Part shown: positions 10,184 through 53,860 of the stretch, in pieces
Numbering within the stretch: position 1 is the first letter of the stretch
Layout of the letters: each line of letters begins with the position of its first letter
DNA from: an uncultured Gammaproteobacteria bacterium
GTDB taxonomy: Bacteria > Patescibacteriota > Patescibacteriia > Magasanikbacterales > GWA2-37-8
DNA length: 64,000 nt
NCBI GenBank assembly: GCA_964355175.1
Contig: CAYHBZ010000001.1
Location: forward strand, 304,523 to 368,522
Direction: 5' to 3'
Translations under genes and position numbers: made by a program
Notes under the pieces: generated by a model
What the model was told of the DNA's origin: nothing
Seen by the model: only the letters and a program-made list of their open reading frames with translations
Databases searched by the model: none

Positions 10184-11734
<1,551 letters not shown>

Positions 11735-15900: not shown

Positions 15901-17338
15901 TGATTGGTTGGGTACTACCACCACCGTAGACCACAGTCGAAGTGCTGGCAGTAAAGGTACCACTTTGTGTAAATGGTGTGATACCTAACAAACTGATCGT
16001 GTATCCATTGGCGTCCAATACAGCGCCACTGCTAATTACAAGATTGTTCATTTCTACTATACCCGCCAATACGGCGGCAGTTGAATCGATTTGTAGACCG
16101 TAGTAGGTAAGGTTAGCGGCAACATTAGTAGCGCCGACACCGGAATATCTGACTACACCATTACTGGTAAGAGTACCAGTTTTAACAAGCGGAGTACCAG
16201 TGCCAGATAAATTCAAAGTGAAGCTAGAAGTATCGAGTGTCTTGCTGGCATTAATAGTCAATACACTACTGACAGTAGTAGAGCCAGACAGTGTACCTGA
16301 GGTGCCATTATCAACAGTCAAATTATAATAGGTGGTGGAGGCGATGGTGGCAGTAGCACCGGAGTATTTAACGGTAGAACCGCTTGGAACAAAAGTACCA
16401 TTTCGCACAAATGGAGTGCTCGTACCAGGCAAATTTATTGTACTTCCTGAATGGCCTGTTAAACTACCTGAGCTACCTATAGTAAGAATATTAGTAGTAG
16501 TAACATTAGAAGTTCCTGCTGTAGACAAAGTTACAGATCCATTTATAGTTAAATTATAAGGCACAAATCTACCTGAAGTTATACCACTATCACCAATTAA
16601 CTTTCCAGTACCAGTCATTGTTACAGTACCTGAAGTTTGAATCAAAGTACCTGGTGATAATATACTTCCTCCAACATTTAGATTAAAGGTAGATAAATCA
16701 AAAACTCTCAGTGAATTAACAGTAAGATCGTTGGTAGTTGTAACACTACTACCAAGCGTGGTATCATCGGCAATAGTAAGGTTGTAAAAATTTATTGATC
16801 CAGGGCCGCTAATAGTTTTAGTAAGACCGGACATCGTGAGAGTACCAACTGTTTGGCTAAGAGTAGTAGTGACATTAACATTACCAGACACATTAATTGT
16901 TCCAGTGGCGTTAAATGCAGTTCCGCCTAATCTCAGATCAACAACAGCCAAAGTACCGCCTACCTGAAAAGTACCGGCGTCTTGTGCAAAACTACCAGTG
17001 CCAGTAAGGGTTACGCCTGAATTAATATTAATAGTTCCGGTATATGTAGAATCCATTGATATGCCGGCAGTAGTTGTACTGACATCAAAAACAGCATTGG
17101 TAGTAGTTCTAGCTCCATTAAAAAACAAATCTTTACCGGTCAGAGTAGTACACGCTGCACCAACTCCACCGATAGTATCTTCCCAATTAGTAAGAGTTGA
17201 AGCCAGCTGAGAACTGCTCGCAGTCCAAGTACAAAAAGCCGCACTTGCCTGCTGACCAAAAAACATTGAGGAGAGCAGAAGTGCTGACCCCACTAAGAGT
17301 AGTTTAGACCTACTCAGAAATGACACATTCGTATTCAT
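12920..17338 (-). CDS. Giant secreted repeat protein (1472 aa), probably a beta-helix-type adhesin, with two C-terminal Ig-like modules
   Basis: The protein has a signal-like N-terminus (LLLVGSALLLSSMFFGQQASA). About 70-75-aa T/S/G/N-rich units recur many times (…TTVSNVLTINSGKTLDANGKTLTFTGTGTPL..NGTFTASTSTVV(Y/F)SGAT.TIASTTYYNLTV.NGT…). Two C-terminal modules of about 110 aa are also repeated (…YTYS(F/Y)KNE…KVKV(M/L)DSKN…ENSFD). Confidence 0.85.
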   Translation of the reverse strand: MNTNVSFLSRSKLLLVGSALLLSSMFFGQQASAAFCTWTASSSQLASTLTNWEDTIGGVGAACTTLTGKDLFFNGARTTTNAVFDVSTTTAGISMDSTYTGTININSGVTLTGTGSFAQDAGTFQVGGTLAVVDLRLGGTAFNATGTINVSGNVNVTTTLSQTVGTLTMSGLTKTISGPGSINFYNLTIADDTTLGSSVTTTNDLTVNSLRVFDLSTFNLNVGGSILSPGTLIQTSGTVTMTGTGKLIGDSGITSGRFVPYNLTINGSVTLSTAGTSNVTTTNILTIGSSGSLTGHSGSTINLPGTSTPFVRNGTFVPSGSTVKYSGATATIASTTYYNLTVDNGTSGTLSGSTTVSSVLTINASKTLDTSSFTLNLSGTGTPLVKTGTLTSNGVVRYSGVGATNVAANLTYYGLQIDSTAAVLAGIVEMNNLVISSGAVLDANGYTISLLGITPFTQSGTFTASTSTVVYGGGSTQPITSASYYNLLISTAGTLAGNVTTTNVLTVSSTKSLDANGYTLALTGTSTPFLRNGTFTASTSTVVFSGATANVASTTYYNLTLNGATSNTITGSTTVNNLFTVGTPSILEPGIENLTLAATGTPFVNNTGASNFSNLLIRYTGNGVNMASGTFYTVTVDSASSTVYGGLQAGGNTGIRINSGAVFNAGTSTLEVTGNNASTFINNGTFNAGSSTFTYSNSVTGPDVASTTYFNLVINNAGTALLTGSTTVSNVLTVNASKVLDASSYTLTLSGTGIPLVNNGTFTASTSIVVYSGATATIASTTYYNLTVDNGTAGTLGGYTTVSNVLTINSGKTLDANGKTLTFTGTGTPLLSNGTFTASTSTVVFSGATSTIASTTYWNLVVNNGTSGTLSGSTTVSNVLTINSGKTLNGSSFTLTFPSSTTAFVNSGTFTSASSTVRYTGTGSVTPAAERYWGLVLGAGTYTLAGNTTSTDSITNAGSLTIGSSYTLYAPGTFTNTGTVTETGAIVHPLASVDFVDGAGTAASTYATAASSVYLKVVDTDANLTTSADTMTVTVTSDTYSDSETITLTETGASTGIFQSSGNIFSVASAKTNNDGLFQVSGNGTVSLAFTDSKDSTDTGSDSATFTGNTVSVSSGSSGGGGGVTSGAGSAPSKVSVSLPGNPSSVSSRNITINLSAFNAKDMIISEDSAFVGAVWELYATTKVFALSAGDGQKTLNIRFRSATGALSTIYQVTVGLKEASALTTLPESSNVGSSNSSNVTIFTLSNPGSKLVILPVKKLQYVPNSSVAYTYSFKNENSATLKIKVARQVLDANGKVVAQVNSSASIAKGKTFKSSASNLLSSKLADGNYTIKVKVMDSKNKLLGENSFDVTVKKPLPPPSISTNNPDSKVVITGLKVDYKPGSAVKYTYSYKNETGKPVKVKIVRQVVDANGKVVGEVDGTRTLSKGQAVKFNATSSLSKKLATGTYTAKVKVLDSKNVVLAENSFDFNVK
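14450..16600 (-). repeat. Degenerate in-frame tandem repeats (unit about 220 nt) within the 1472-aa gene
   Basis: Recurring nucleotide blocks are visible, for example ggtggtggaggc(g/a)at(g/a)gt...gcaccggag(t/a)a...gtgaaggtaccgtt near 14770, 14990, 15670 and 16330. Confidence 0.6.
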
Positions 17339-28861: not shown

Positions 28862-30445
28862 ATGAAAAAAATACTTTTTTGGCTGTTATTGGTACTAAAT
28901 TTAGTCTATCCGCTGACCATTATATCCAATACCCTAGACGGTGATTTCGGTTGGCATCTGCGTTTTGGACAGGATATCCACACGCAGAGCTCTTTTCCCT
29001 ACCTCGATACCTACACCTATACAAAATATGGCGAACCTTGGACCAATCACGAGTGGGGCGGCGACTGGATTATTTACCAGGTTTATTCTCATCTAGGATA
29101 CTTCTGGATCAATATCATCGTGGCACTGGCCGGCGCTCTCGCTTTTTGGATTATCGGCAAAGCATTTATTAAAAAACCTGGAGTTTCTTTTTTGTTTTTT
29201 GCTCTGGCCTGCCAGATGGCCGTGTACCATATTTTCGCGCCACGTCTGGCGATGTTTTCGCAATTATTTGCCGCTTTGATTATTTTAATAATTGAAAAAT
29301 ATTCCTCCCGTCCGCGCGCGCTATACCTGATACCGTTTATTATCTGGCTGTGGTCCGTTTTGCACGGTAGCTGGATTTTGGGCTTTATTATTATGAATAT
29401 TTATTTGGGTTGTGCCGTGCTTCCATATATTGTGGGCCAAAAATACCAAAAATATTTTAATGAAGAAAAAAAGCCGCTTACTTTTATTTATCAGCTAATA
29501 GGGATTCAATTGCTGGCGGCAGTGCTAATTATAATCAATCCCTACGGCATAAAAATTTGGCAAGAAATCTTTCAGTATTTTGGACAAAATTACTACAAAG
29601 CCCACATTAGCGAATGGACACCGAGCTATGCTTATCCGGTGTTTCCAAAAATTTTGATTTTGCAGACCATTACCTTAGTATTGGTAATATACGGCTTTAT
29701 CAAACGCAAAGTAAAATTTACTTACCTGACTTTTTTCCTGGCCTTTTTTTACGCGGCCATGATGTACAAACGCCAAGCGATTTTTACCGCCCTGCTTTCC
29801 GCCCCAATATTATATTATACCGCCACTTTTATGCGGGAACAGATGACCAATTTAAAATTTTATAACTTTTTTATAAAACAAAAAGAAAAATTCTATTTTG
29901 TCGGAATAATTATCACGATACTTTTGATAATATTCTATGCCCGCCAAATGCACTATACCGATGATCCTTGGAATGACAAAATTCTTTCCTATAATAACGC
30001 TCCGCCCTACGAAGCGACCATATTTTTACAAAACTATACCGCGGGAAAATCAATAAAATTATTCAATGAATTCAGTTGGGGTGGATTTTTAAATTGGATG
30101 TTGCCAAATGCTCTGGTATATCTGGACGGCCGCGGCAGTGCCACCTGGATGCACGACAAAAATACCAGCATGCTACAACACTATATCGAACTCAAAGAAG
30201 AAGATAATGCCGTAAAAATAATTGAAGATACCGGGGCGGACTATATCATGTTACGCTATCCCAAATTTGTCATTAGCGGCATTCCCAGCTTCGCCGACCG
30301 ACATTTATTTGGTGATAATTTCAAAGAATATTTCGTGAATCATGAAGAAAAACTGAGGGAGAAAATTGACAATAGCGGTCACTGGAAAAAAATATATTCA
30401 GACAATCGCGCTAACATCTGGCAAAAAATTAATCCCGCGCCATAA
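28862..30445 (+). CDS. Polytopic integral membrane protein, possibly a GT-C-type glycosyltransferase
   Basis: More than 10 hydrophobic segments are followed by a soluble C-terminal domain. The start is placed at the ATG at 28862 (MKKILF). The functional call is only a guess based on architecture. Confidence 0.6.
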   Translation: MKKILFWLLLVLNLVYPLTIISNTLDGDFGWHLRFGQDIHTQSSFPYLDTYTYTKYGEPWTNHEWGGDWIIYQVYSHLGYFWINIIVALAGALAFWIIGKAFIKKPGVSFLFFALACQMAVYHIFAPRLAMFSQLFAALIILIIEKYSSRPRALYLIPFIIWLWSVLHGSWILGFIIMNIYLGCAVLPYIVGQKYQKYFNEEKKPLTFIYQLIGIQLLAAVLIIINPYGIKIWQEIFQYFGQNYYKAHISEWTPSYAYPVFPKILILQTITLVLVIYGFIKRKVKFTYLTFFLAFFYAAMMYKRQAIFTALLSAPILYYTATFMREQMTNLKFYNFFIKQKEKFYFVGIIITILLIIFYARQMHYTDDPWNDKILSYNNAPPYEATIFLQNYTAGKSIKLFNEFSWGGFLNWMLPNALVYLDGRGSATWMHDKNTSMLQHYIELKEEDNAVKIIEDTGADYIMLRYPKFVISGIPSFADRHLFGDNFKEYFVNHEEKLREKIDNSGHWKKIYSDNRANIWQKINPAP

Positions 30446-31157
30446 CCAGTCCATACACTTTTTGCGCTCCGGCGGATTTTAATACACGCGCACACTCCTG
30501 CATCGTGGCCCCGCTCGTGAAAACATCATCCACCAAAATAATATTTTTAGAGAGCGCGTCACGACCTTGCCAAACAAAAGCGCCATTTAGATTGGACAGG
30601 CGCTCAGCTCGATTTAATTTGGCTTGCTGTTTGGTAAATTTTATTCTCTGTAAATTGAGATCATCCAACTGAATACCCGGATGATCTTTTTTTAATACTT
30701 GAAAAATATTTTGCGCGATTAATTGCGCCTGATTGAATCCGCGCTCACGCCGACGCCGGCTATGTAGCGGCACGGGCACAAGTGTGGCATCACAGCTAGG
30801 CAGATTACCGGCTTGCCAAATAGTATTCAAAAATTCTGTCGTGATTTGAAGCCAAAGATTATTGATATCCGTAACTAGATTATACTTAAATTTTTTTATC
30901 AATCCACTCACCGCTCTATTATTTTGATAATTAAAAAAGGCGGCCACAGCTTCTAGACTGCTGGCCGCCTGACAATTGAGACAATTTTTGCCGTTTAAAT
31001 TTTTCAGATGACAAACTGGACAATAAAATTCTCCGCCGTTAAAACTTTGTATTATACAACTATCACACCACCACACACCCTCTTGATCGCAGCCCAAACA
31101 AAATATCGGAAACAAACAATCCTTTATAAATTGCACTAGCTCCCCTCCCCTAAACAT
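30429..31157 (-). CDS. comFC: ComF-family competence protein (ComFC, phosphoribosyltransferase domain)
   Basis: N-terminal Cys clusters are present (CLGCDQEG..C, CPVCH...CLNC). RGFNQAQLIA and ILVDDVFTSGATMQECARVLKSAGA form the PRTase motif. The start lies 4 nt after the upstream stop. Confidence 0.8.
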   Translation of the reverse strand: MFRGGELVQFIKDCLFPIFCLGCDQEGVWWCDSCIIQSFNGGEFYCPVCHLKNLNGKNCLNCQAASSLEAVAAFFNYQNNRAVSGLIKKFKYNLVTDINNLWLQITTEFLNTIWQAGNLPSCDATLVPVPLHSRRRRERGFNQAQLIAQNIFQVLKKDHPGIQLDDLNLQRIKFTKQQAKLNRAERLSNLNGAFVWQGRDALSKNIILVDDVFTSGATMQECARVLKSAGAQKVYGLVMARD

Positions 31158-31160: not shown

Positions 31161-31757
31161 TTATTTTACCATTGTAAAATTATCTACAAACCAAGTGTCG
31201 CCACTTTTTACCAAGCTCACTTTGGCCTGAGCGTCTTTTTGAGTAATCACTCCGCCTTTTTCTTCAGTAATTTTTACCTGCAAATCTACCGTCGCGCTGA
31301 CATCAGTCCAAGCGGATATTTTGGCGCTATAGGCCTCCACACTCACGGCATAAAAATTTGGACTATTAGCGGGAATATTAGCCGGAATTTTGGCACTTAA
31401 TTGTTTCCAGTAGCTGTCGGTGGCCAAACTTTCCACATCCATCATATTCTGATAGCGGCTTTCCGAAGAATATGAATTCAATCTTTCCACGAAAATTTTA
31501 GCAAAATTTTGAGCGGCCTTTTGCTGAGTTTCCAAAGTGCTGGTTTTTGGCACATTTACATTCTGTAGATTGGTGACTGGCAAAGTGGTGCCGGCAGGAT
31601 TACTTTCAGAGTCGCCAGGCAATACTGTATTACCAGCATTATCTACTGCCGGAGCATTTTTATTTTTGGAGCGCACATACAAAAATATACTGACACCCAA
31701 AATAAATAATACGATTAAACTAACTACGATAAAAATACGGGCGCGTAATGACATCAT
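31161..31757 (-). CDS. Bitopic membrane protein with a C-terminal alpha+beta domain, possibly VirB8-like (NTF2-like)
   Basis: A single N-terminal TM segment (IFIVVSLIVLFILGVSIFLYV) is followed by a low-complexity linker and a globular domain of about 120 aa. The gene lies immediately downstream of VirB4. The VirB8 assignment rests only on architecture and context. Confidence 0.5.
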   Translation of the reverse strand: MMSLRARIFIVVSLIVLFILGVSIFLYVRSKNKNAPAVDNAGNTVLPGDSESNPAGTTLPVTNLQNVNVPKTSTLETQQKAAQNFAKIFVERLNSYSSESRYQNMMDVESLATDSYWKQLSAKIPANIPANSPNFYAVSVEAYSAKISAWTDVSATVDLQVKITEEKGGVITQKDAQAKVSLVKSGDTWFVDNFTMVK

Positions 31758-31766: not shown

Positions 31767-33635
31767 TTATTTAGTTTGATTTTCAAATTCTTGTTTGGCG
31801 CGTTCGATCTCAAGCAACTGCTGCGGGTTGGTGGTCACCAGCTGATCTTCGGTATACGAAGCCACGATCTTGATAGCGGCATGTTTGAGACCGGCAAAAA
31901 ATATTCCTTCACCCGGAGCACTCTCCAACAATAAATATTTTTCACTATCCGTAAGCATGAAAACTTTTTGAATGTTGTCCACGGCGGCCGGAGATTGGCG
32001 GAGCAACAATTGCAAAGCCGAATTGGTCACAATCGCCTGTCCGTATTGGGAATGCAAGAAATCATTTACATCCTGCGTAATAGTCGTGACACCCAAATAA
32101 TATTTACGACAGCGTTTCACCAAAGCAAAAATAAATCTGGCGGAATCTTCGTGTTGCATCAGCCACCAGGCTTCATCAATTACGAGCACGCGCTTGCGAC
32201 GCTCGGAGCGCACCGTGTTCCAAATATAATTGATAATCGCGTAAATAGCGAGCGGACGCAATTCATCTTCCAAATCACGCACACTATACACCACCAACTG
32301 ATTTTTCATTTCCACATTGGTTGGCGAATTGAATAGTCCACTAAAAGTACCTTCGGTATATTTTTTCAATTTTAATACCAATTCGTTCGAGCCTTCCATA
32401 CCTTCGAGCACTTCCTGCAAATCTTGCATGATTGGCGCTTCGACAGTATTGAGATCCACACCGGATACGATATCTTTTTTGGCGTAAGTTTCGATGAGCG
32501 CTCTATCGATTACCGAATCCTGCTCAGTAGTAATACCACCAAGCATAATACGGAGTAATCCTTTCACAGTAATAACCGCGCTACGAATAATATCGTCGAC
32601 AGACAAATCCTGCTCCATTGGGCGAGGCAGATCAAATGGATTTACTTTACTCTCACTGCTCAAAGAAATATTAATATAAGTACCACCGACCGCGTCAGAG
32701 AGATGTTTATATTCCATTTCCGGATCAATCACAATCACTTCCAGGCCCATCATGAGAGAGCGCAAAATTTCCAATTTAATGGCATAGCTTTTACCGGCAC
32801 CGGAAGTAGCAAATACTACCATATTGGCATTCTGCATCGAAAAACGATCAAACAAAATCAAACTATTGTTGTGACGATTGATTCCGTACAAGATACCATT
32901 ATCGGAAGTAAGCTCGGCAGAAATAAATGGAAAAGACGCGGCAATCGGCGATGAATTCATGTTGTAGGAAATCATCAATTCATCATTGCACAGCGGCAAA
33001 GTAGAATTAAAACCTTGCTCAGCTTGATACAATACTTTGCGACTCATGATCAATTTACTGCCAAAAATACTTTCGATATCTTCGGATAACTGATCCAATT
33101 TTTCTTTATTTTTGGTATAAATAGTGACATAAAAAGCAAACTGAAAAAAGTGCTCTGTCCCCTGGGTTAGATTGTCGCGCAAGCCTTCAATATCACGCAA
33201 AGCGGTCTCACGAATTGGATCACGCGGCGCGCCCTTTTCGGCATCGGCGCTAATCTGCGCTTCGAGCGCACCTACTTTATTTTTTAATTGTTTCAAAATA
33301 ATTTCGGCTTTAATCGGATAAAAGAACATTGAAATATCCATATTCACCGACAAACCAATCACGGGAGAGCTCCAACCCACGGAAATATAACGCGGATAAT
33401 TCATGATGAAAAGCGTACGACAAAAAGTGGTGCCAAGCTGGATAAAATTGGACTCAATATTAAAAGCCGCCGGCGCGATAATATCACGCAACGACACCAC
33501 GCCCTCACGATAGACCTGCTCTTCTTGCAGAGTAATGAGTTCGGCAGCGGTAGCTTTTTCTAACTTGCTTTTATCTTTACTACCCAAACTCGCTTTATCG
33601 TTTTGTTTGGCAATGAATTGTGGTTTAAAGGCCAT
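31767..33635 (-). CDS. virB4: VirB4/TraC/PrgJ-family T4SS ATPase, C-terminal 622-aa part
   Basis: DIIAPAAFNIESNFIQLG..FCRTLFIMNYPRYISVGW is the VirB4 middle domain. VVFATSGAGKSYAIKLE is Walker A and RVLVIDEAWWLM is Walker B. TQDVNDF is also present. Confidence 0.85.
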   Translation of the reverse strand: MAFKPQFIAKQNDKASLGSKDKSKLEKATAAELITLQEEQVYREGVVSLRDIIAPAAFNIESNFIQLGTTFCRTLFIMNYPRYISVGWSSPVIGLSVNMDISMFFYPIKAEIILKQLKNKVGALEAQISADAEKGAPRDPIRETALRDIEGLRDNLTQGTEHFFQFAFYVTIYTKNKEKLDQLSEDIESIFGSKLIMSRKVLYQAEQGFNSTLPLCNDELMISYNMNSSPIAASFPFISAELTSDNGILYGINRHNNSLILFDRFSMQNANMVVFATSGAGKSYAIKLEILRSLMMGLEVIVIDPEMEYKHLSDAVGGTYINISLSSESKVNPFDLPRPMEQDLSVDDIIRSAVITVKGLLRIMLGGITTEQDSVIDRALIETYAKKDIVSGVDLNTVEAPIMQDLQEVLEGMEGSNELVLKLKKYTEGTFSGLFNSPTNVEMKNQLVVYSVRDLEDELRPLAIYAIINYIWNTVRSERRKRVLVIDEAWWLMQHEDSARFIFALVKRCRKYYLGVTTITQDVNDFLHSQYGQAIVTNSALQLLLRQSPAAVDNIQKVFMLTDSEKYLLLESAPGEGIFFAGLKHAAIKIVASYTEDQLVTTNPQQLLEIERAKQEFENQTK

Positions 33636-33638
33636 ATT

Positions 33639-34325
33639 TTATTCTTGTTCAATTTGCATCTTATCCATTGGCGCCATACGCTCGGTGAGAGCGATATCGG
33701 GATTATAAGTAGAGTACAATACTTCTACCAGAGACTGAGTGTCGAGGCGCACCACTTCCAGACCAATTCCGCGCAAACCAGACTCTACTTGGCGCACACG
33801 CTGATCTAAATCATATTTGCGTTTGGTGAATCTTTCCGCTTTTAGTTTTACCGTCACGGCCGGATGAAAAACTTCGCTCAAACGCGCCCAAAAACTTTTT
33901 TGTTTATTGGACAAAGGATCATAAGGCACCACTACATAAAAATTTTTGCTCATAATCTCCCCCATCTCGACAAGCTCCGACACAAAAGATCGATAGTCGG
34001 CAATCTGCGCGCGCAACAATTCATTGGTCTGTTCGCGCTCGCGTTTGAGCAAATCTTCCAGGTACGGCTTGATATATAATTCACGCGACTGAATTACCAC
34101 CTGCAAAGGGTGGTCCAAACCGTTGAGAAAACTCACATAAGCGGATACGATAGCGTTTTGTTCGTCTTCATTTTTCAAAGCAAAATTAATGCTCGATACT
34201 AACATTATAGCACGCATCGTGCCATCTTTCATCACCACGGTATCCTGTCTGATTTCTGAAACAGACAAAAATCTTTGGGCGGATGGTATGCTGGTTTTTT
34301 TTGCTGCCGCTTTTTTATTCTTCAT
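33639..34325 (-). CDS. VirB4 N-terminal segment encoded as a separate 228-aa ORF
   Basis: DTVVMKDGTMRAIMLVSSINFALKNEDEQNAIVSAYVSFLNGLDHPLQVVIQS follows, as I recall it, the N-terminal pattern of Gram-positive VirB4 proteins (Tn916 Orf16/PrgJ type). It is separated from the 622-aa ORF by TAA-AAT-ATG in the same frame. Confidence 0.55.
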   Translation of the reverse strand: MKNKKAAAKKTSIPSAQRFLSVSEIRQDTVVMKDGTMRAIMLVSSINFALKNEDEQNAIVSAYVSFLNGLDHPLQVVIQSRELYIKPYLEDLLKREREQTNELLRAQIADYRSFVSELVEMGEIMSKNFYVVVPYDPLSNKQKSFWARLSEVFHPAVTVKLKAERFTKRKYDLDQRVRQVESGLRGIGLEVVRLDTQSLVEVLYSTYNPDIALTERMAPMDKMQIEQE

Positions 34326-34331: not shown

Positions 34332-34784
34332 TTAATCTTCCGGTTTATAATAACCGCCGGTATTTACCGCCAAGGCCAAATCGCGCAGACGGTTATAGGA
34401 TAAATTTGGCACCTCCGCGATCTTTTCTACTAGCACCACCGTTTCCATTTTGCGCAATTGTTCCAATTCTTCTTTGGTGTCCATTTTATACCAGATGCGT
34501 CGACTCGGTCGGCGCAGTGTCTGAAACAAATTCAATAAAAAATAATGAAAAGACTGTCCGTTGATTTTTACAAAAGCCAAGATCAGAGAAAAGCTACCTA
34601 GAGTGGCTAGAGAGAAAATGAACAAAGCCATGTCCGCCAATTTAAAAGTAATAAATAAAATCAGTCCGGCAATTAGCAAGATCAAAAACTGACGCGTAGT
34701 CACCGGTCCAAAAATTTTATCCTCAACGTCAATAAATTGTGGCACTACAAACTGTTCCATATTAAATAGCCAACTCTTTTTCAA
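34332..34784 (-). CDS. PrgI-family (VirB3-like) small membrane protein
   Basis: VPQFIDVEDKIFGPVTTRQFLILLIAGLILFITF followed by a second TM segment is the PrgI-family pattern. The gene lies directly upstream of VirB4, as in Gram-positive T4SS loci. The likely start is the internal MEQF. Confidence 0.6.
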   Translation of the reverse strand: MKKSWLFNMEQFVVPQFIDVEDKIFGPVTTRQFLILLIAGLILFITFKLADMALFIFSLATLGSFSLILAFVKINGQSFHYFLLNLFQTLRRPSRRIWYKMDTKEELEQLRKMETVVLVEKIAEVPNLSYNRLRDLALAVNTGGYYKPED

Positions 34785-35901
34785 AATTAATTAAAGCTTC
34801 AATTTCCGCTAAAGAAATTTTATCTCTTTCTCCCAGCACTCCGGATAGTGGTCGTCTCTGCTCTATCGCCTCATCCACCGCGCTAATATAAGATTGATAC
34901 AGAGGACTATTATGCCAAGCGTCCCAGGATTTCATAAACAGCAGATAGGATTCTTCTTTCAAGTTCAAAAATTTTTGTTTCAGGCGCTCAGCGGCATCGA
35001 CCGGCTTGGAAGACAGGCGGCGAAAATCTACCAGATTGAAAAATTGAATCTCGTCGAGAGGCCCCATGGCCATCGGTTTGCTATGCACATCGTGCATCAT
35101 CGCTCTAGGAGTCACCGAAGCCGCGCGCATTGGCGCAATATTTTGGGCCGGTTTCTGCTCTGTTTTTTTTGCGATCAAATCTTCGATCGGCGCCGAAGCT
35201 ACGCCGGCACTGAAAATAATTTTATCTACAATATTTTCTTTCACTTCCTTTTTTTCTACTTTCGGCAAGTAAGTGGTTGGTTTGGATTTTTCGGTCAATT
35301 CTCTAGCCTGAGTTTCAGTCAATCCCAATCCACCGTCTTTTATAGAACGGCCACAAGCATCCAGAGTATCAGGTTCACTGCGAATATCTTTTAGACGGAG
35401 CTGAACGACACTACGCAAGCGACTATCAATTTGAGGTGAAACTTTAAATGATAAACTGGAAATGATTTTGGAAACTTGATCGGTGCGATTGGATGCTACG
35501 GTAGTTTTGGCATGTTCACTGTCTGGGACTTCTTCATGGAGCAATGATTTCAAATCTTCATTTTTCAAAACTGGCTTTCCTGGCACTTTTTTATCGTCAT
35601 CCTGAGCGACTTTATTGTCATCCCGAACGGATGTGAGGGATCTTTCCGGCCTGTTAGATTCCTCGCTTACACTCGGAATGACAGTATTCACCTTTGGAAC
35701 GACAGGTGCTAAAACAGGCTTCACAGGTGCGGACACAGGCACAGCCGGTGTTGGCGCCACTGGTGTCGGTGCAACTGTTGGTACAGCCACTGTCGGTGTA
35801 GACGCGCCGGCCTGGCGTTTTTTTATTTCAGTCAAAGAAACCCTCTCGGTCGTGCCGTCGGATTTTTTTACCGTAATCATGATTTGATTATTGTCTGGCA
35901 T
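34762..35901 (-). CDS. Hypothetical protein (379 aa) with a Pro/Val/Ala-rich segment and an embedded palindromic element
   Basis: The ORF is part of the operon and its ends overlap or abut the neighbouring genes. The repeat-derived peptide VIPSVSEESNRPERSLTSVRDDNKVAQDDD is embedded in it. I recognise no domain. Confidence 0.6.
   Translation of the reverse strand: MPDNNQIMITVKKSDGTTERVSLTEIKKRQAGASTPTVAVPTVAPTPVAPTPAVPVSAPVKPVLAPVVPKVNTVIPSVSEESNRPERSLTSVRDDNKVAQDDDKKVPGKPVLKNEDLKSLLHEEVPDSEHAKTTVASNRTDQVSKIISSLSFKVSPQIDSRLRSVVQLRLKDIRSEPDTLDACGRSIKDGGLGLTETQARELTEKSKPTTYLPKVEKKEVKENIVDKIIFSAGVASAPIEDLIAKKTEQKPAQNIAPMRAASVTPRAMMHDVHSKPMAMGPLDEIQFFNLVDFRRLSSKPVDAAERLKQKFLNLKEESYLLFMKSWDAWHNSPLYQSYISAVDEAIEQRRPLSGVLGERDKISLAEIEALINFEKELAI
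35596..35682 (-). repeat. Palindromic element copy C (35617-35682) plus an adjacent half-copy (35596-35610), in frame within the 379-aa ORF
   Basis: The full copy is gtcatcccgaacggatgtgagggatctttccggcctgttagattcctcgcttacactcggaatgac. The half-copy gtcatcctgagcgac matches the left arm of copy A at 13 of 15 positions. Confidence 0.6.
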
Positions 35902-37992: not shown

Positions 37993-40900
37993 TTATGATG
38001 TTGGATCTTTCTTATTTTTTTCAGCAGTTCCTTTTTCTACCGGTTTAAATGCCGCCATCTGCCTCTTTGGTGCCTTGCCGTCATCAGTAAAAGCCCCTTC
38101 ATTGTATAAAGAAATCAACTGACTGATATTTGTAATATGCTCCTGCTTACCTTTTGCCATCACAGTAATATTCATTTTACCGGTCTGATAAGCTTCCTGA
38201 GCGTCTACCTGAGATTTCTTGGCCAAAGTCATCAACACATCTTGAGGGTTGGTAAACAACTGATCCTTTACCAATTCATTAAACCAATCATTGGTAGTTT
38301 GCTGGTGTAAGGCGTCTTCTTTATTCTTTATATGTCCAAGACGTTTACCTGATTTTACCTCAGAGTATCTCCCGGCCAGCCCAATACCGTCATCGGAAAA
38401 TTTCTGTGCCCAATTATGACGCCCTGAATCAGACCCATTGGCTTTTTTACCATTAATCAAGAGACCATCCTTTTCTGTAAAATAATCTTCAACGTTTTCC
38501 GTGGAAGCCAAACCGGCCATATGGTTTAGATAACGTGGAGTAGTTTTTTGATGGTTTAAATGACTGGTAATATCACCTCTGGATATACGATACGCTTTGC
38601 CTCTGGTTCTAGTAGCATAGCCTGTACCCTCATCTAAGTTAATATAGGAATGCGATTGTTTACCGGCACGATTGCCAACATCCAATTTGTTGACCTCACC
38701 CAACACACCATCTTGGGCGATTCCAGCACCCACCAATACATGCCTTTGTTTACCTCTGCTAGATTTGATATTATCGGCATGGCCACCATTTTCAGTATGA
38801 GAACCACCGGCCATCTCATCGCGTAAATTGGTAACAAATTGAATTTGAGATTGATTATCATCCTGCGTCTTGATATATTGAGCCATTTTAGACTTATCGG
38901 TAATTGTTTTTAATGGAGCACTGTCAGCACCAAACTTATCACCGAATGTTTTTAATTCACTACCGGTAAAATCTTGATTTTCCAATTTATCATAAAATTG
39001 AGCCACACTCATACCCATTTCTTGCACAGCATAATCCATCACTTTGGCTACTTGTTTATGCATACCGGCAAATTCTAAATCACCACCAGTACTCAAAACC
39101 GCAAACAAATCATTAATTTTTTCAACGTTAAACTCCTTGCCTTGCCAACCAAGCCCACCATCTGCAACATTTTTTTGCATCTCCGCTTTTAAATCAGGTG
39201 CCATCGCGCGCCAAATACCATCATCAAGCCAACTTTTAGAAACACCATGATCAAGCATAGCGGCCATAATATTTTTATCGGCAGAAGTTGGCCCAGTACC
39301 TTTACCCTCTTTCGCATCTTTTCTCTTTTGAATCATCGCCAAAAGATTGGTACCAAAGTTACTGGTATAGGTGCTATAATCCATGTCCGTAAATCTTTTA
39401 CGATAATATTCTCTACCTTCAGATAAAGCCTCGTTTGGCACAGTGATACCTCGAGGTTTGTAAACTTCTTCTTGCTCTACTTCACTCAATAAATAATTAT
39501 GATCTTTGGAATAGGCATTTTTTTCCTCAGTTTCCTTGGCATGAGCCGCTGAATTCTCCCAAGAAATACTAGAGGTTCTTTTGGCTCTAGCTTTCTGTAC
39601 AGCCTCTTTTCTAGCGTCCTTAAGTGTCTGATCATTGTTATCTATAGATGAAATTTCTTCCTGTAGGGTTTCAATACTATCTTCTTTAGCTTTTATCGTA
39701 CTCCCATTTTTTACATCAAAATCGTTAAATGCTTTTTTGGCAGCTTCTAATTCTTCCGGATTGGAAGGATCCGCCGCTCCCAAAGCTGCTTGTAGCCTAT
39801 TTTTTTCCGAAGACAATTTACCAAGCTCTTCCTGTTCCGCTTTTAGCTGAGTGCGTTTGAGGGCCGAACCTTCAGAATGCATATTGTTGGCTGATTCCAA
39901 AATTTCCTGAGCCTCAAGCTCAGCTTTTATTGCCTCTTCGTCAAAGCCATGTTTTGCTTTAGTTAAATTATTGCTGAGTTGCGTTTTGGCAGTATCAGCA
40001 CCAAGTTCGGCTCCAGCTTGCTTTCTGAGAAGGCCCTTACCGCCATGTTTTATTATTTTACCATTTTCATCTTTCTTATCTTCGGTGTCAGAAAAAGCAA
40101 CGGCGGCTTTCTTTTCCAATTCTTCAATTTCAGCATGTTCTGTGCCTTCTTCAGCTGCTATAGCTGCTTGCTTGGCGAGTAATGCTCCGGCATGTTCCAT
40201 GAAATGCAACTTAGCACCACCTTCAGCTAAATGAGCGGCTTTCTCAGACAATTCCGCTTTAAACTTCGCCTCCACCTTGGCGGCGACCACTTGTTTTCCT
40301 TTGCCACTTTTACGATATTCTTCCAATGTTCCCGACATCAGTTCCTTGGTTCGTTCTTTGTTTCTATCAGCTCTTTCATTATGACCAACAACTTGTTCAG
40401 CTATACTACCTTTTTCATATTGAAATTTACCATCTTTAAAACGAGAACTCTCCAAAGTGGCACGGCGACCATACTCTTGGAATTCAGAAGTTTTAGCGGC
40501 AGAGCGTTCTTTTTCCGCGGCCAACATACCTTGGGCAACACGATCAAAGCCATCTGGCATATCACGCAAAAATGCACCTTTAGGAATGGCCGTTATCCTT
40601 TTATCTATCAATTCTTCTTGTAGTTTGGATTGATCTTCTGTTTTCTTTAAAGTTTTACGGCTGCCAATTAATTTGGCGCGAGCTTCATAGCGATTTTTTT
40701 GAAACCAACTCCTTGAATCCTTATCTTCATATTCATATTCACCTTCGATATCTTTACCATTTTCATCTTTCTTATTAACAAATTTCATTCTGGCGTTTCC
40801 TTTATCATCTAATTTTACATTACCGTGCTCATCTTTCTCCTCCTCCATTTTTAATCTAGGACCTTCCGAACGATAAATTTTCCAGCTTTCCAACTGGCGT

Positions 40901-42189
40901 TTGGCAAAATTTTGAACTCTTTCTACCGTATCTCCCAAAGGTGTCGCATTCCAAACCGCACTCTTGATACCACTGCCAGCGGCACTCACCGCTTTACTAC
41001 CCATATCTTTGGTCTTATTAAATGCCCACATACCGGCCGCTACACCAGAGCCAACCGTAGCCACTTTCTTGGCAAAATCCGTGGCCTTGCTCATCGCACT
41101 GCCACCTACTGTACCAAGCGACTGCGCGGTCTTGGCACCAACAAGTAAAATACCAATTGCGATAGCGAAGTTGGCAATTTTATCAAAACTCATCACCGCG
41201 CTAATACCCACGGTCGCGGCCGCGCCGTTAACTTTCGCACCCGGCATATTTTCTTGCGGAGCGGAATTATTCTCTTTGCTACTAATTTCAGAATTTATCT
41301 GACCACTGCCCACTACCGCAAATGACAGCCATAGGAAAAATACTACGACCGGACCCACGATGACATGATTACCAAACTCACTCCACCATTGCGAAGCATA
41401 TTTTTCGGTTTGCGGAATCACGCTGAGCACAAAAGCAAATGGCGACAACACAATCAAAATCCACAGCACCAACATGCGAGCCAAAAGCATAAATACAAAT
41501 ACGGCCATAATGCCCAAAGTGAGAGCGGCAAAACCAAGTGCGCCCACCGCGGCACCAAAAATTTCTGAATTACTGGTGAGACCTTGCGGACCAGTTTCGG
41601 GATTGAGAGAATAAATTTTATCCAAACTAAAAGCGTTGATCAAATTACCACCGGCCGTGGCGGCGATACCGTTTACAAAAGTAATCATTACCACCTGAGA
41701 AATATCAATAATCACGCCACAAATTATTCGACTGAAATTTACCAAAATAGCGGCAAAGAAAAACTTCACCAACATTTTTTTCCATTCGTATTGTTCTAGA
41801 CCCAAGATAGTACCAAAAGCCACCAGCAACAAAACCACCACAAAAAACATATTGGTAATATCACGCACCATCACCCAGCCTACCTGCACAGCGGTGGAAT
41901 TCAGATAGCCATTATAGCCGGCAATCTCAATAATAAACGACAAACAAAAAATCGCCAGACGAATCATCAAAGCCGCAGCGGCCAAGAGCATGGTCGTGAT
42001 TGCTTTGACAAAAGTATTAGGCTCAAAACCACCGGCGGCGGCCGGCTCGGCATACACCACATTTGTACCCATCACCGCATACACACCCAGACCCAAAACC
42101 AGCAAAAATACAAAAAGGGCCACTTGGTTTTTGTGGGCAGATAAAAAGTTATAGAGTTTAATTGTTCTCGCTTTAATACTTGAGAACAT
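37993..42189 (-). CDS. VirB6/TrbL-like polytopic membrane protein with a charged C-terminal extension of about 1000 aa
   Basis: The N-terminal 350 aa or so contain at least 6 TM segments (…MVRDITNMFFVVVLLLVAFGTILG…ILVNFSRIICGVIIDISQVVMITF…), as in VirB6/TrbL/PrgH-type channel proteins. The remainder is K/E/A-rich and looks like coiled coil. It is the first gene of the operon. Confidence 0.6.
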   Translation of the reverse strand: MFSSIKARTIKLYNFLSAHKNQVALFVFLLVLGLGVYAVMGTNVVYAEPAAAGGFEPNTFVKAITTMLLAAAALMIRLAIFCLSFIIEIAGYNGYLNSTAVQVGWVMVRDITNMFFVVVLLLVAFGTILGLEQYEWKKMLVKFFFAAILVNFSRIICGVIIDISQVVMITFVNGIAATAGGNLINAFSLDKIYSLNPETGPQGLTSNSEIFGAAVGALGFAALTLGIMAVFVFMLLARMLVLWILIVLSPFAFVLSVIPQTEKYASQWWSEFGNHVIVGPVVVFFLWLSFAVVGSGQINSEISSKENNSAPQENMPGAKVNGAAATVGISAVMSFDKIANFAIAIGILLVGAKTAQSLGTVGGSAMSKATDFAKKVATVGSGVAAGMWAFNKTKDMGSKAVSAAGSGIKSAVWNATPLGDTVERVQNFAKRQLESWKIYRSEGPRLKMEEEKDEHGNVKLDDKGNARMKFVNKKDENGKDIEGEYEYEDKDSRSWFQKNRYEARAKLIGSRKTLKKTEDQSKLQEELIDKRITAIPKGAFLRDMPDGFDRVAQGMLAAEKERSAAKTSEFQEYGRRATLESSRFKDGKFQYEKGSIAEQVVGHNERADRNKERTKELMSGTLEEYRKSGKGKQVVAAKVEAKFKAELSEKAAHLAEGGAKLHFMEHAGALLAKQAAIAAEEGTEHAEIEELEKKAAVAFSDTEDKKDENGKIIKHGGKGLLRKQAGAELGADTAKTQLSNNLTKAKHGFDEEAIKAELEAQEILESANNMHSEGSALKRTQLKAEQEELGKLSSEKNRLQAALGAADPSNPEELEAAKKAFNDFDVKNGSTIKAKEDSIETLQEEISSIDNNDQTLKDARKEAVQKARAKRTSSISWENSAAHAKETEEKNAYSKDHNYLLSEVEQEEVYKPRGITVPNEALSEGREYYRKRFTDMDYSTYTSNFGTNLLAMIQKRKDAKEGKGTGPTSADKNIMAAMLDHGVSKSWLDDGIWRAMAPDLKAEMQKNVADGGLGWQGKEFNVEKINDLFAVLSTGGDLEFAGMHKQVAKVMDYAVQEMGMSVAQFYDKLENQDFTGSELKTFGDKFGADSAPLKTITDKSKMAQYIKTQDDNQSQIQFVTNLRDEMAGGSHTENGGHADNIKSSRGKQRHVLVGAGIAQDGVLGEVNKLDVGNRAGKQSHSYINLDEGTGYATRTRGKAYRISRGDITSHLNHQKTTPRYLNHMAGLASTENVEDYFTEKDGLLINGKKANGSDSGRHNWAQKFSDDGIGLAGRYSEVKSGKRLGHIKNKEDALHQQTTNDWFNELVKDQLFTNPQDVLMTLAKKSQVDAQEAYQTGKMNITVMAKGKQEHITNISQLISLYNEGAFTDDGKAPKRQMAAFKPVEKGTAEKNKKDPTS

Positions 42190-43755: not shown

Positions 43756-46700
43756 CTATGGATTTTCTATTTTATTTACTGGCACAACTACTCTAGACTT
43801 AAATAAAGTATTAGAGTGAGAATTTTCAGATGTATCAGTATATATAGAATAAAAACTACACTCTTGCATTTTACCATCATAGCAACTACTTGTACCATCT
43901 GTACCTGCAGTTTCACTATCCACACAAGTACCATTACACCATCCCCAATTATCCAACACCTGAACTTTTGGTTGATAAACACAGCAACCGCCCAGTTTGG
44001 CATCATCCCATTTTGTCTTTTGAACACCACTGAGGACATCACAATTTTCATGCCAGATAGGAGCGCCTTCTTGGCCAGTACAATTATAATAAACTGTGGC
44101 GGTATATGGATGGAGATCACAGCTTTGATTTAGAATATATCCAAAGGCAGGAGCTTTGGTCTCATCAGCGGTACACTGAGGCAACAACTTGCCGTTACAT
44201 TCACTATCCATAGTACAAGGCACACTAGAACCGTTACATACACCGGCTTTACACATACCGCCTATAAAGTATCCGCGCTGATTCCAAAAACTACCATCAC
44301 TGGTTTTTTTGATATCACTTGGATCACCGGTACCCGGGTCAATAATAATTCTTCGCACCGGCATATGATCTGAGTCGGCATTATAGAAGAATTTGAAACT
44401 TGCTTCGTATGGCTTGGTGTCGATGACCAGATGATCAGTAGCGGATGCGGGCAATTTATTGTTAATGTTGAAACCATCCTGGAATATTTCCTGACATTTG
44501 CCGCTGGTGTCACAATCACCGACCGGATGTACTTGAGGAACTGATTTAGAAGGATCGTGGGCATCGCCATTATAATTTGTAGCTATATTAGTCACATCCA
44601 AATCTTTGGTAGTCAAAACCAATTTATCACTGGTGGTTGGCGATCTATATAATTGAGTTTTGTTATCAGAGAATATACTGATATTGCCAAACGGAATCTT
44701 AGCATAAACCTGCACGAGCAAACTCAGCGACTCTTTGATCTTGTCTACCAAAGGCTTACCACTGGTTGGGGCTTTGGAACTCATATTCTTTGGCAAACAT
44801 ACTTTCACCTGATCTCCAACACAACTATTTTCGTAACAAGCGGCATCAGTAGCACAACCTAAAGTACTGCTAACTACCCCATTGAAACTACAGTTACCTG
44901 CACAGAAGAAACCATTCTTTTCACAATTACTACTGCCATTGGCAGCATTACAGTCCAAAGCCATCTTTGGCGTGGTTGTACTACTGGTACAAGAGTTGGC
45001 TGAAAGATTACAAACCGAAGTATCGCCAAAAGCATTCTTACACTTAGTATTATCACCGGTACCGTCGGAATTTTTACATTTAAATTGACAAGTATTGTTG
45101 TTACCATGATTAGCACAAACGATATTGTAATTACAATTACTGTCTTGAGTACAACTGGAATAACTGGCAAGACTCCAGCGATCATAAGTTAAATTATTTG
45201 AGGTAAAACCTTTGTATCCTACAGGAGAACCTTTAGGACACATAGCTGTACTAAGCGGCTCTTCAAAAATTCCATTCGTGCCAAAACAAGAACGTAATAA
45301 ATACAACGGACTATTAGGGCTTTTGGTTTTAGAGTCATTCATGAAAGCGAACGGTGAGCTGGTAGCTTCACGAGTAAAATTCACTTTATTTTTATAAACG
45401 GCATCTACATTGGAAACATCTATCGTTTTGAAATCGCTTTTGGTATATTTCCACAACCTATCCGCCCAAGGTGCAAATTTTGTATCCAAACTGTCGAACT
45501 GGACATAGGCCTGGCAACCAATCTGAGTGTTTTGGAAACTTGACATAATGTTTGAATACCAAGTACCGTCCGGATAAGCTTTTGGTTCATCCGGCACACA
45601 GTGGGTATAACACCAATCTGGGTCATAATTATCACAGCCCTTAATTCCGCTAGCGGCTTTATAATCACTATGGAAACCTACGCCACAGATAGTGTGTGGA
45701 GATTCTTCAAAACCGTCATCAAGCGCAAGGGCAAACACACAATCAGAATCTGAATTATACACGTTAGCAGATGTATTAAAACATCTATCAAAACCACCCA
45801 AATCCGATCTGTAAATATTCGCGGCCACACAATACTTTGTTCCTTCCGGTAGTGCCGCGGCCGACTGTGGATTACTGCCATTGATATCCACTGATCCCTC
45901 TATTGAACCAAGTGGCAACCAACTCATACATGGATATTGTGGATCGTCCTTTGTACCACCAATTACTCTAGATTTATCATACTCCAAACAAAAACCTTTC
46001 CAACCATACAAATTTTGAATTTTATTATCTTTTATCTGACAGGTACCTCCGGCTTTTTCACATTCTCCTGGTGGCAATTGAGCCGGATTTTTAGCATCAA
46101 AAGCAACACTACATGGCTGATCATCTTTTGAACCACCTAAACATACACCTTTATTATCTTCAGCATACACTGTCTTCAAGGAAGAATCATTTTTCTGAGA
46201 AAAATACTTGACTACGGACTTATTACCAAATGTTACTTTGGCATAATCACAATCACAAACCTGAGCCGCCGGATCTCCGGCATCAAATACAGCACCACCA
46301 TTTTCAAAGCATTTATTTAATTTGGTGGAATCCTTCAAATTATTCGCAAAAATATTTGGAAAAGGAGAGTCTTTTTCCGGATAAGCGCGACAAGCCTTAC
46401 CAATACTAGAAGCGGCCAAATCACTATTTTTGCCATCATTACCTTGCAAACACCATCCATTTGTACAAACACCGTCATTTTGTGCACCACAAGATACAGT
46501 AGTTGTAGCTGATTTACAACCAAATTTATTACTACCACCCGCGCACTTTGTGACATCATTTCCACAAGGAATAAGCCTAAGCAATCTCCAATCAGGATCG
46601 GGATCAGAAGCTTTGGCGATATTAAATTGCCACAATTCCTCTACCGGATAACTTCCCAAAATAGACAGACCTACTAACTCTCTTCCTTTCCAGGACACAT

Positions 46701-49700
46701 CGCGAGTTACATATTTTTCTTCAGTCAAAACCTTATTGGAATACTCACTTTGTCCGGTAATAAATTCGGCGCAATTTGCAGCTTGCCCATTTGGATCACT
46801 GGCACTAGGCAACTTGTCACAGAGGCCAATCGCGGTACACTGGGAAACTTTTTTATTTTGTTTATCATCCCATTTGTCGGTGCTGGCTTTGCATTGGAGC
46901 CATTCCGCGCATTCGCGATCACGCTTCACTGAAATAATACGATTAGCGTCTAGATTACCAGTAGTCATTGGATTGACTTTGGTGACTGCAAATAAATTAC
47001 CACTGATATCGCCCAAAGTACTATCGCTTTTGGCGTAGGTAGCTACAGTATCATATACCTTGGTTGGTTTATCGGTTTGATCAAACAGCGCACACCCGGC
47101 TTTTTGACTAACCTGTCCAGCACAATCACCTTCTGTTAGTTTAGTATTGTCAAACAAATAATAAGTTTGATCTTTATCAGCGTGGTCAATAAATTCAGAA
47201 CAGGTATCTTGTTCAGCCGGACACTCACCTACAAAATTTTTGTATTTGCCGGTATCACCAAATGACCACAGGTTAAAATAATTTCCATTTTTCTTATAAT
47301 CAGGATAGCAGGCTTGTTTGTCTTTCAGGTCGGGCAAACAAATATTTCCGCCAGAACATTCATCATTACTGCTACAGAAAGTTTGTGGATTGGCCACAGC
47401 CAAAGTAGTGCTGTTGCCACAGACACTCACACCTTTCCAAAACCAACCGGATATAGGTTGTTTGGATATCGGATCATTGAAGGTTCGCAGGGAACAAATT
47501 TTATTTCCACTCACAGCCGGATCTTTGAAATAGGCTGTACCTTTGCTGGAATTATAAGCATCACAACCTACCGCTTCCGCTTTACACAAAATACCACTTT
47601 TCGGACCAGCGTCACTAGTATTATCTTCAAACTGATTTGGATCAATTTTTACTGTGGTAGTAACATATTTTATTTTACCGGTCGCAGTCAAAGTCTGTTT
47701 ACCGGCATAGGTACAACCAAGATCTACAGCATTACAACTACTATTACTCTTACCATCGGCCACTAGATATATAGTACTACTGTCGGTACTATCGGCTGGG
47801 ACATAATAGGTCGAATCCAATACTTGCGGATGAGACAAACTACTATTATTTATATTGGCAGCAGTAATCTCGGACAAAGTAAATCCTTTTATATTCATAT
47901 AACAGCCACTCTTGCCCTGCTCTACCTGACAAGAGAACGACTTCCCGCCTACCACAGCAGTGCTCTTGGTACCGCCAATGCCCGACAAGAATACATTATA
48001 GGCGCGCGGACCGGCATCGGATACTTTATTAAAAGTATCTTTAAAAGCGGTACAACCAATAGCACCATCACGACAGAGATAACTAAAGTTGGTAAGGTAA
48101 TACAAAGTATCACCCAAACTATTTTTTGGACCGGTGTAAGCGGTACAGCCCAAAGCGGCGCCCGGTAAATTATCAGCCGGTTCGTCATCGCAAATTGAAT
48201 CCACTCGCAAAGAATTCTTTACCAAGTAGATATAATCGGAGACTTTTGTCAGACGAATATTATCCAAGAATAGACTACCGCTACCATTTAAAGTAAAGAT
48301 AAGACTGTTTAAAGTGGCGGTATCGGAAGATGGTAATTTAATGTTGAATTTGAATACTTGCCAGTTGTTATTGGCGCTAAAAATTGAAATATCAGTTGTC
48401 TTGCCGTTGTTGTCACTCATTTTCACAGACGCATTTAGACCGGTCCCTTTGGCCCAGAAAGTGAGATCATAACTCTGATCAGAAGCCTTGTCCACATCGC
48501 CACCCGAAACCGGTACAGATTTGGAAAGTACTGCGTTGTTGCCGGACAGTTCCAAGGAATGTTCACCGGCGTGATTTGATTCATTAGACCATACTACCGT
48601 GCCACCGTTTACCGACCAGCCTTTGGCCGCGGAAACTGAATCGGCAGTTTCAAAGGTAATGATAGGATTAGTGCTGCTGGCATCCAAACCAATAGTTTGA
48701 ATATTATTACCGTGATTGCCTTTATAGGCGCGACAAGAAACCATCTCAGCCGCGCAAGTCTGGCTGGATTGGTTGTGACTTATTATACCTCCTGGCAAAC
48801 CATAATAATAACAAGCACCATCTTTGGCTTCGCCGTTGCCAAAACATTTGTCTGGACCAGCCATTTCGTCACTATTTAGACGATACTGTGCACAGTCGGC
48901 GGATACTACCACAGTAGTGTGCATCAGAGCATAGTAAACATTGCCTTGATCATCATTAAATTGTCGACAATCCGGATCAGCAGTTCCGCTCTTATATAAT
49001 TTTTCATTACATTGATATTGCTTGGCATAGTTGCGCTCAACATCATCCTTAAATACTGTCAAAGGATTACCGTCAGTATATTTTTGCAAAGTATATGATT
49101 GTAATTGATAGCCACCAACTTTTGAACCTTCGTAAGTATAGAAATTTTTCTGTTTATTTTCATCCGGCTTGATACAACTGCGCAACAGGGTAAAATTTTC
49201 TACTTTTTCACCACCGTCTTGCGAGGATTCCATATTAGTGAAACCGGTACAATTATCGTCCGCCACAGTACATTCTTTGCCGGATTCAAAATTATTATAT
49301 TTGGAAGGAGGCACTATATAAGCGAGCGGATTGCCGCCGGAATAAGTGGTAGGCATTTCTTGATAGGCATTATACCCTACACAGCGGGCATCACACTGGT
49401 CGTTCCAGGCCGTGACAGTGTTATTGTCTACCTGGGCCGCCAAAAATTTACCGGGAATACCAGGAGCATCAGTGTCATTTACATTTTTGAATATCGAACA
49501 GCCGACTTCGCTAGCAATACAAACCTTGGCATAGCTGTCGCACTCTGTTTTTGGAGTCATCTTGATAAGATCGGACAAACTCTGTGGCCAATTTATACCA
49601 TTGGCACTGTTGGCATCTTTATCATAACAATTCAAATAATCCGGAGCTTTTTTGAGATATACCAAATCAGTATTAACATTACTCACACTTGGAGCATTTC

Positions 49701-53259: not shown

Positions 53260-53859
53260 TTATATTTGTACTTCCAAACCGCCTTGTCTTAACATTTTTA
53301 TTTTATTCCCGACAGCCGATACGATAGTGGTGTGAGGATTATGAGGCAATTCGCCATAATCCAAAATAATATCCGGTTGCTCCGATAGGGATTTAAATAT
53401 TTCATAAAACTCAGCGGCGGAATAACAGCTAGGCTGACCAGCTAAATTGGCGGAAGTGGCGACAAGCGGTCTTTGGATTTTTTCCGTAATTGATTTTATC
53501 AGCGGATAATCGGATACGCGTATGGCTACCGTATTATTTTTACCTACCACTCCCTTGGCCAATTTACCTAGAGCATAGTTACCTACCACGGTAATAGGAC
53601 CAGGCCAATAAGCATGGGCCAGACGATTTAAATTATAATTCCAGAGCAAATATTTTTTGGCCATTTCGATACTATTTACGGTTACTAGTAATGGCTTGTC
53701 GTCACTGCGGCCTTTGATTTTGAAAATTCTATCTACCGCCGCTTGATTGGTAGCGTCACAGCCTAGGCCGTAAGAAGTCTCAGTTGGAAAAACCAAAACT
53801 TTTCCGTTTAAAATTTCGGAAACTACTTGGGCTAGATTGCATTCTGACAGTATTTGCAT
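53260..53859 (-). CDS. tsaC: L-threonylcarbamoyladenylate synthase (YrdC/TsaC type)
   Basis: VLVFPTETSYGLGCDA, IKGRSDDKPL, WPGPITVV and TSANLAGQP are present. The start is placed at the ATG at 53859 (MQILSE), directly after the prfB stop. The longer ORF-track start would overlap prfB by 83 nt. Confidence 0.8.
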   Translation of the reverse strand: MQILSECNLAQVVSEILNGKVLVFPTETSYGLGCDATNQAAVDRIFKIKGRSDDKPLLVTVNSIEMAKKYLLWNYNLNRLAHAYWPGPITVVGNYALGKLAKGVVGKNNTVAIRVSDYPLIKSITEKIQRPLVATSANLAGQPSCYSAAEFYEIFKSLSEQPDIILDYGELPHNPHTTIVSAVGNKIKMLRQGGLEVQI

Positions 53860-53860
53860 A

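Follow-up and report, generated by a model that had tools for sequence, protein, structure and literature searches.

A single in-frame stop codon in the middle of what could be one virB4 gene raises the question of whether the gene was recently broken, whether the stop is read through, or whether two genes stand there as a natural pair. We sought to answer this for a stretch of 64,000 nucleotides (nt), referred to here as the window, from contig CAYHBZ010000001.1 (assembly GCA_964355175.1, positions 304,523 to 368,522), recorded as an uncultured Gammaproteobacteria bacterium and placed by GTDB in the Magasanikbacterales of the Patescibacteriota. On the minus strand of the window, an open reading frame (ORF) for a TrsD-like protein of 228 amino acids (aa) (33639..34325 (-), including the TAA) is followed by one for a short VirB4 ATPase of 622 aa (31767..33635 (-)). 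We found that the two very probably constitute a natural two-gene VirB4 module of a type IV secretion system (T4SS), in which the TAA is the ordinary stop of a separate, ancient and conserved gene. The basis for this is the complementary homology of the two proteins, the same split in the staphylococcal plasmid pSK41, a split in all relatives examined and the lack of a conserved frame relation between the genes. A natural two-subunit VirB4 was one of three explanations in an earlier reading of the sequence (the original prediction), alongside a recent nonsense mutation and a stop that is read through or re-initiated.

The junction of the two genes (TAA-AAT-ATG, 33633..33641 (-)) was read directly from the minus strand as ...ATT GAA CAA GAA TAA AAT ATG GCC TTT..., with TAA at 33641-33639, AAT at 33638-33636 and ATG at 33635-33633. 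The stop of the TrsD-like gene, the single codon of the 3-nt spacer and the start of virB4 share one frame with no additional stop in between, exactly as had been described. The exact 228-aa protein was encoded on 7 contigs of public assemblies, and the junction was base-for-base the same in both of those compared (ENA ERZ4201065 and Logan ERR3856789), which indicates that the stop is no artefact peculiar to the window. Stop-codon reassignment was considered as a separate matter and rejected, as TAA is the commonest stop, ending most ORFs in the window, and release factor 2 (RF2), which reads UAA, is encoded there (prfB, 473 bits; 53861..54937 (-)). A Shine-Dalgarno signal was sought before virB4 and none was found, which is uninformative because nearly no gene of the window has one. 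It was noted that nearly all of the 32 large ORFs of the window had no such motif in the 30 nt before their start, despite the canonical CACCTCCTT in the tail of the 16S rRNA.

Two proteins along the length of one VirB4

The 228-aa protein matched three VirB4 models near their N-terminal ends (3-119 of 752, 90-234 of 894 and 7-67 of 789), and Pfam family PF26593 'TraC-like' was recorded for the exact protein and for all 120 of its close homologues. An AlphaFold2 model based on 88 homologues reached a predicted local distance difference test (pLDDT) score of 90.3. When this model was compared with the PDB by Foldseek, R388 TrwK/VirB4 chains accounted for every one of the top 14 matches (best E 7.6e-4, probability 1.0, template-modelling score 0.51), and the first match to anything else had an E-value of 0.24. 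The profile matches and the predicted fold together connect the protein to the N-terminal part of one-piece VirB4, in agreement with what had been claimed for the upstream piece; the original prediction had also allowed for a protein with no such homology, and this is not what was found. Zero hydrophobic segments were detected in the hydropathy profile, and the protein is soluble.

The 622-aa protein matched the NCBIfam model of CD1110-family VirB4 (NF045971) with 357.6 bits against a cut-off of 325. The match covered model positions 174-728 of 752, so that the protein alone does not span the full length of the model. It also matched Pfam P-loop_TraG (E 7.7e-28), and its residues 244-601 matched PDB entry 4ag5, the C-terminal ATPase domain of Thermoanaerobacter VirB4 (E 2e-48). 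The Walker A motif GAGKS and the DE of Walker B were invariant across the alignment of its homologues. In a blastp comparison with pCF10 PrgJ (796 aa), the protein aligned to PrgJ residues 221-772 (5e-42), with its residue 45 paired with PrgJ residue 221. Judged from these sequence matches, the protein is a VirB4 ATPase without roughly the first 175-220 residues of one-piece VirB4. It carries the rest, or second half, of the classical N-terminal domain followed by the P-loop ATPase domain, and the assignment of the middle and ATPase domains to the downstream piece was thereby borne out.

Alignment of both pieces to full-length VirB4, which had been proposed as a check, placed them on complementary parts of each model. 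The N-terminal piece and the C-terminal piece took up positions 3-119 and 174-728 of the CD1110 model, 90-234 and 292-887 of the VirB4_plasma model, and 19-180 and 274-374 of Pfam TraC_F_IV. From these complementary positions it follows that the two proteins tile VirB4 without overlap. Compared with one-piece VirB4 proteins (pCF10 PrgJ, the CD1110 family and R388 TrwK), the two window proteins jointly cover the whole length, with the ATPase domain resembling 4ag5 and the small-protein fold resembling TrwK. The difference is that in the window a polypeptide of its own, the 228-aa protein, is the stand-alone counterpart of the first ~175-230 residues.

In R388 TrwK, the N-terminal domain comprises residues 15-400 and the C-terminal ATPase domain residues 400-823 (PMC9259494). 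The ATPase domain begins ~240 residues into the 622-aa protein, which places the cut inside the classical N-terminal domain. The original prediction had put the stop at a domain boundary, and this was right in one sense only. The cut comes after a compact sub-domain that is modelled confidently on its own, and it does not coincide with the point, near residue 400 in TrwK, where the N-terminal domain gives way to the ATPase domain.

The same pairing in pSK41 and in Patescibacteria

The gene order of the window was compared with that of pSK41, where a PrgI-like protein (135 aa), TrsD (227 aa) and a DUF87/VirB4 protein (TrsE, 672 aa) form a trio. The first member of the corresponding trio in the window is a PrgI-family (VirB3-like) small membrane protein of 150 aa (34332..34784 (-)), which was identified by Pfam PrgI (PF12666; E 7.2e-9, 36.5 bits, cut-off 27) and has a single long hydrophobic segment at residues 24-62. 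The 228-aa gene lies between this gene and the short virB4, and in 74 of 75 related loci the three stood side by side in colinear order. The window (150, 228 and 622 aa) thus resembles the pSK41/pGO1 systems (TrsD/TraD with TrsE/TraE, pGO1 subclass of MPF_FATA) in gene order and in sizes. When the family profile of the small protein was aligned to pSK41 TrsD by hhalign, nearly the whole length of TrsD was covered (E 1.1e-5, probability 82%), and the 622-aa protein aligned with pSK41 TrsE colinearly from the N-termini (blastp, 3e-50). The premise that Gram-positive VirB4 is one polypeptide therefore holds for pCF10 PrgJ, with its 796 aa, and fails for pSK41, where TrsD precedes the 672-aa VirB4.

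The window also differs from pSK41 in two respects. The latter is a conjugative plasmid with a relaxase and a coupling protein, whereas the system in the window is chromosomal and stands among housekeeping genes. The sequence similarity is moreover remote, with an ATPase identity of 25% and a score of 33.9 bits (E 2.7e-8) for the 228-aa protein on the NCBIfam TrsD/TraD model (NF041427), whose curated cut-off is 200. On sequence grounds, the 228-aa protein is best regarded as a member of the broad family and a distant relative of staphylococcal TrsD, and not as an equivalog.

The closest parallel is the chromosomal T4SS of Patescibacteria, in which TrsD is the most abundant T4SS component (Quinonero-Coronel et al. 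2025, PMC12102498). That study counted 2,272 TrsD homologues, 1,664 of which adjoin virB4, stated the homology of TrsD to VirB4 and placed TrsD in the pGO1 subclass of MPF_FATA. It was noted there that the literature assigns TrsD no function, and a TrsD homologue was found to be essential in Ca. Southlakia epibionticum (PMC12102498). The window belongs to the same phylum-level group and shares the chromosomal location, the TrsD homologue adjoining virB4, the PrgI/VirB3 homologue, a comF gene nearby as in class ABY1 and a VirB2-like pilin elsewhere in the genome. No substantial difference was found, and the window is one more instance of this type. The frames at the junction are not discussed in that study (PMC12102498), the name TrsD was not found in the main text of Guglielmini 2014, and the phrase 'split VirB4' was not found in our literature search. 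The two-gene TrsD/VirB4 arrangement is already known, and a Pfam family (PF26593) exists for the small proteins.

A TrsD-like protein may be homologous to the VirB4 N-terminus and still have a separate function, such as that of an adaptor or regulator, without serving as the subunit that completes VirB4. This is in keeping with the report that TrsD homologues of Gracilibacteria mostly do not adjoin virB4 (PMC12102498) and with the long disordered tails of many family members. We consider it unlikely, as the part of VirB4 to which TrsD is similar is the very one missing from the short VirB4, the genes are adjacent and in the same order in all but one of the 75 loci, and the same pairing is present in pSK41.

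Frame and spacing at the junction among relatives

Comparison of orthologues, which had been suggested as a way to see whether the genes are fused or split elsewhere, was carried out at three levels. The 120 best homologues of the 228-aa protein (98-70% identity) were all 214-232 aa long, and the 120 best homologues of the 622-aa protein were all 590-643 aa. A cluster search returned the 150 best representatives of 50%-identity clusters, drawn from 1.84 billion proteins, and all 150 were 112-443 aa. The longer representatives that were read (8 of 8) consisted of the same domain with disordered tails rich in P/Q/A and contained no ATPase. In these TrsD-like proteins of other Patescibacteria (P0122, P0131, P0138, P0169, P0173, P0175, P0191 and P0198), the tails are low-complexity stretches of 100-220 residues rich in P/Q/A/T and are N- or C-terminal; the 228-aa protein of the window does not possess them.

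At the genome level, 80 species-level genomes of Magasanikbacteria, Falkowbacteria and other Patescibacteria (99-46% identity) were compared, and the two genes were separate ORFs in all 79 loci that held both. A fused orthologue was not encountered down to ~30% identity, and none was present in any of the three sets (close homologues, cluster representatives and genome loci). Both proteins were highly conserved, as were both ORF ends, and the second gene started with MAFKP... in most loci. The upstream gene ended in TAA in 63 loci, in TAG in 11 and in TGA in 5. The spacers between the genes had a median length of 7 nt, with extremes of -8 and 140 nt. The second gene started in the frame of the preceding stop in 24 loci and was shifted from it by +1 in 38 and by +2 in 17. 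Since all three frame relations occur, the in-frame state in the window can be regarded as a one-in-three chance outcome. The in-frame arrangement is not a conserved feature.

These variable spacers and frames, together with the lack of fused relatives, rule out a recent nonsense mutation and strongly disfavour programmed read-through. Under the latter, leaky or programmed decoding of the TAA would yield some fused VirB4 besides the two separate proteins, a possibility brought to mind by the three in-frame codons with no stop between them and by the 24 relatives that are in frame as well. That number is the chance expectation, and neither a conserved frame relation nor a conserved stop context was found across the 79 loci. 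In the nearest relative (L078, 99% identical), the junction reads TAA-TATAT-ATG, with a 5-nt spacer and the second gene out of frame, and a 96%-identical relative (L001) has TAA-TAT-ATG. Several of the in-frame loci contained extra stops in the spacer. UAA is, in addition, generally the least leaky stop, and it is the commonest one in a window that also encodes RF2. Read-through is thus very improbable, and the suggestion of it in the original prediction found no support.

There is next to no chance that a recent nonsense mutation split a one-piece VirB4 in a system beginning to decay, an idea favoured only by the in-frame TAA-AAT-ATG itself and the existence of one-piece proteins such as pCF10 PrgJ, since neither the 120 closest proteins nor the 150 cluster representatives included a fused homologue, 79 of 79 related genomes (to 46% identity) had two ORFs with variable spacers and frames, both proteins including the MAFKP start of the second were highly conserved, and pSK41 is split likewise. 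A pseudogene was rejected on the same comparisons, as intact one-piece orthologues were not found in close relatives.

Several results do weigh against the reading as a natural two-gene module. The score of the 228-aa protein on the TrsD model is far under the curated cut-off. Neither phmmer with the 228-aa protein nor a profile of 88 sequences reached TrwK among the PDB sequences, with only chance matches returned in both searches, and with hhalign the same profile gave a colinear but non-significant alignment (E 0.14) to pCF10 PrgJ taken as one sequence. AlphaFold2 applied to the 622-aa protein alone, from a shallow alignment (80-96% identity), gave a poor model with a pLDDT of 46. Tight translational coupling is also not universal, as the spacer exceeded 15 nt in 24 of the 79 loci.

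The chromosomal cluster, its surroundings and a proposed role

We further characterized the genes on either side of the trio. Upstream of the PrgI-like gene is a conserved neighbour encoding 379 aa (34762..35901 (-)), which was detected in 74 of 80 related loci and had no significant family match. Directly after virB4 is a gene for a single-pass membrane protein of 198 aa (31161..31757 (-)) with one N-terminal hydrophobic segment by hydropathy. No match to it was found in the Pfam/NCBIfam-type family scans, and wherever it was detected (55 of 55 loci) it lay downstream of virB4. A ComF-family gene (30429..31157 (-); TIGR00201 comF, E 5.2e-28) closes the cluster right after the T4SS genes and was found at this place in 70 of 80 related loci. 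The proximity of this competence gene to T4SS genes has been noted for class ABY1 (PMC12102498). The run of T4SS genes also includes a giant ORF of 1398 aa (37993..42189 (-)), in which a hydropathy scan showed ~7 hydrophobic segments in the first 350 residues and for which no Pfam or NCBIfam match was found. From its topology only, it is a candidate polytopic VirB6-like component, and it may belong to the T4SS.

The same window contains a 16S rRNA gene, three tRNAs and genes for HisRS, signal peptidase, TrmD, SMC, ClpP, RecQ, RF2, KsgA and Sua5, and it is chromosomal. No relaxase family was matched by the large ORFs scanned, several of which match no family whatever. The locus therefore has the features of the chromosomal T4SS of Patescibacteria, with VirB4, TrsD and PrgI in a chromosomal context and no relaxase found nearby. 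Approximately 29 kb from virB4, a 692-aa protein (2710..4788 (-)) was found to combine a bacterial Ig-like Big_5 domain with a T4SS pilin domain (PF18895; E 2.7e-8 over residues 65-129), and it has an NCBIfam match to Mbov_0395 pilin-like proteins (E 3.7e-5). The protein resembles a VirB2-like pilin to which a large extracellular part has been fused.

Other features of the window were recorded as well. The 16S rRNA gene has no adjoining 23S rRNA gene in the window and is followed downstream by genes for an epimerase and a PfkB-cupin kinase and by tRNA-Val and tRNA-Ile (10186..11741 (-), 7196..7394 (-)); linkage between the rRNA genes thus appears to be lacking. The RF2 gene is a single ORF that is not interrupted by the +1 programmed frameshift often seen elsewhere in bacteria. 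It shares 83 nt with the Sua5 ORF (53260..53943) at the start listed for the latter, which suggests that the Sua5 start is probably further downstream. Three more giant ORFs were noted, encoding 2649 aa with no family match (43756..51705 (-)), 1472 aa with weak sub-threshold Pfam matches near the C-terminus only (12920..17338 (-)) and 2283 aa with PKD and Ig-like repeats (55996..62847 (-)). Among the relatives, many records of metagenome-assembled genomes (TPA_asm, CAY.../CAZ...; for example L002, L012-L015, L021 and L023) are titled 'uncultured Gammaproteobacteria bacterium', and single records are titled 'Candidatus Udaeobacter' or 'Methylomirabilis'. These genomes carry a Magasanikbacteria-type locus at 66-86% identity, and the organism labels of such records are probably wrong.

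The conserved trio that contains the two-gene module encodes a membrane anchor of the PrgI/VirB3 type, the TrsD-like protein, which is soluble, and the short VirB4. The TrsD-like protein may bind the short VirB4 in trans and thereby rebuild the full N-terminal domain. In R388, the N-terminal domain of VirB4 is wrapped by and holds VirB3, and it forms the VirB4 dimer interface (PMC9259494). VirB4 and its TrsD-like and PrgI-like partners could then form a membrane-anchored unit that energises the chromosomal T4SS. The short spacer would allow the two pieces to be translated in a coupled manner and made in roughly equal amounts. Neighbouring genes of the T4SS cluster are as a rule a few bases apart, and coupled translation is suggested by how short the spacers are in most genomes; coupled re-initiation across the 3-nt gap is plausible and would be ordinary operon behaviour.

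The N-terminal domain of R388 VirB4 binds VirB3 in the central subunit, whereas in the outer subunit it binds the tails of VirB8. TrsD as a free protein might therefore allow its stoichiometry or occupancy to be set apart from the ATPase and act as a regulated assembly switch of an essential T4SS, choosing which ATPase copies are anchored to the membrane, an idea that we regard as improbable.

For annotation, these results indicate that the labels pseudogene, frameshift and recoding event are to be avoided for the site, and that TrsD-like (VirB4 N-terminal-like) is the name to give the 228-aa gene in place of hypothetical. Beyond correct annotation the finding matters little. It makes the modest addition that the TrsD-like protein has the predicted fold of the N-terminal part of TrwK/VirB4, and that the cut falls inside the classical N-terminal domain. 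The TrwK-like fold offers a concrete hypothesis for TrsD, in a T4SS that is essential to the epibiotic life of cultivated Patescibacteria.

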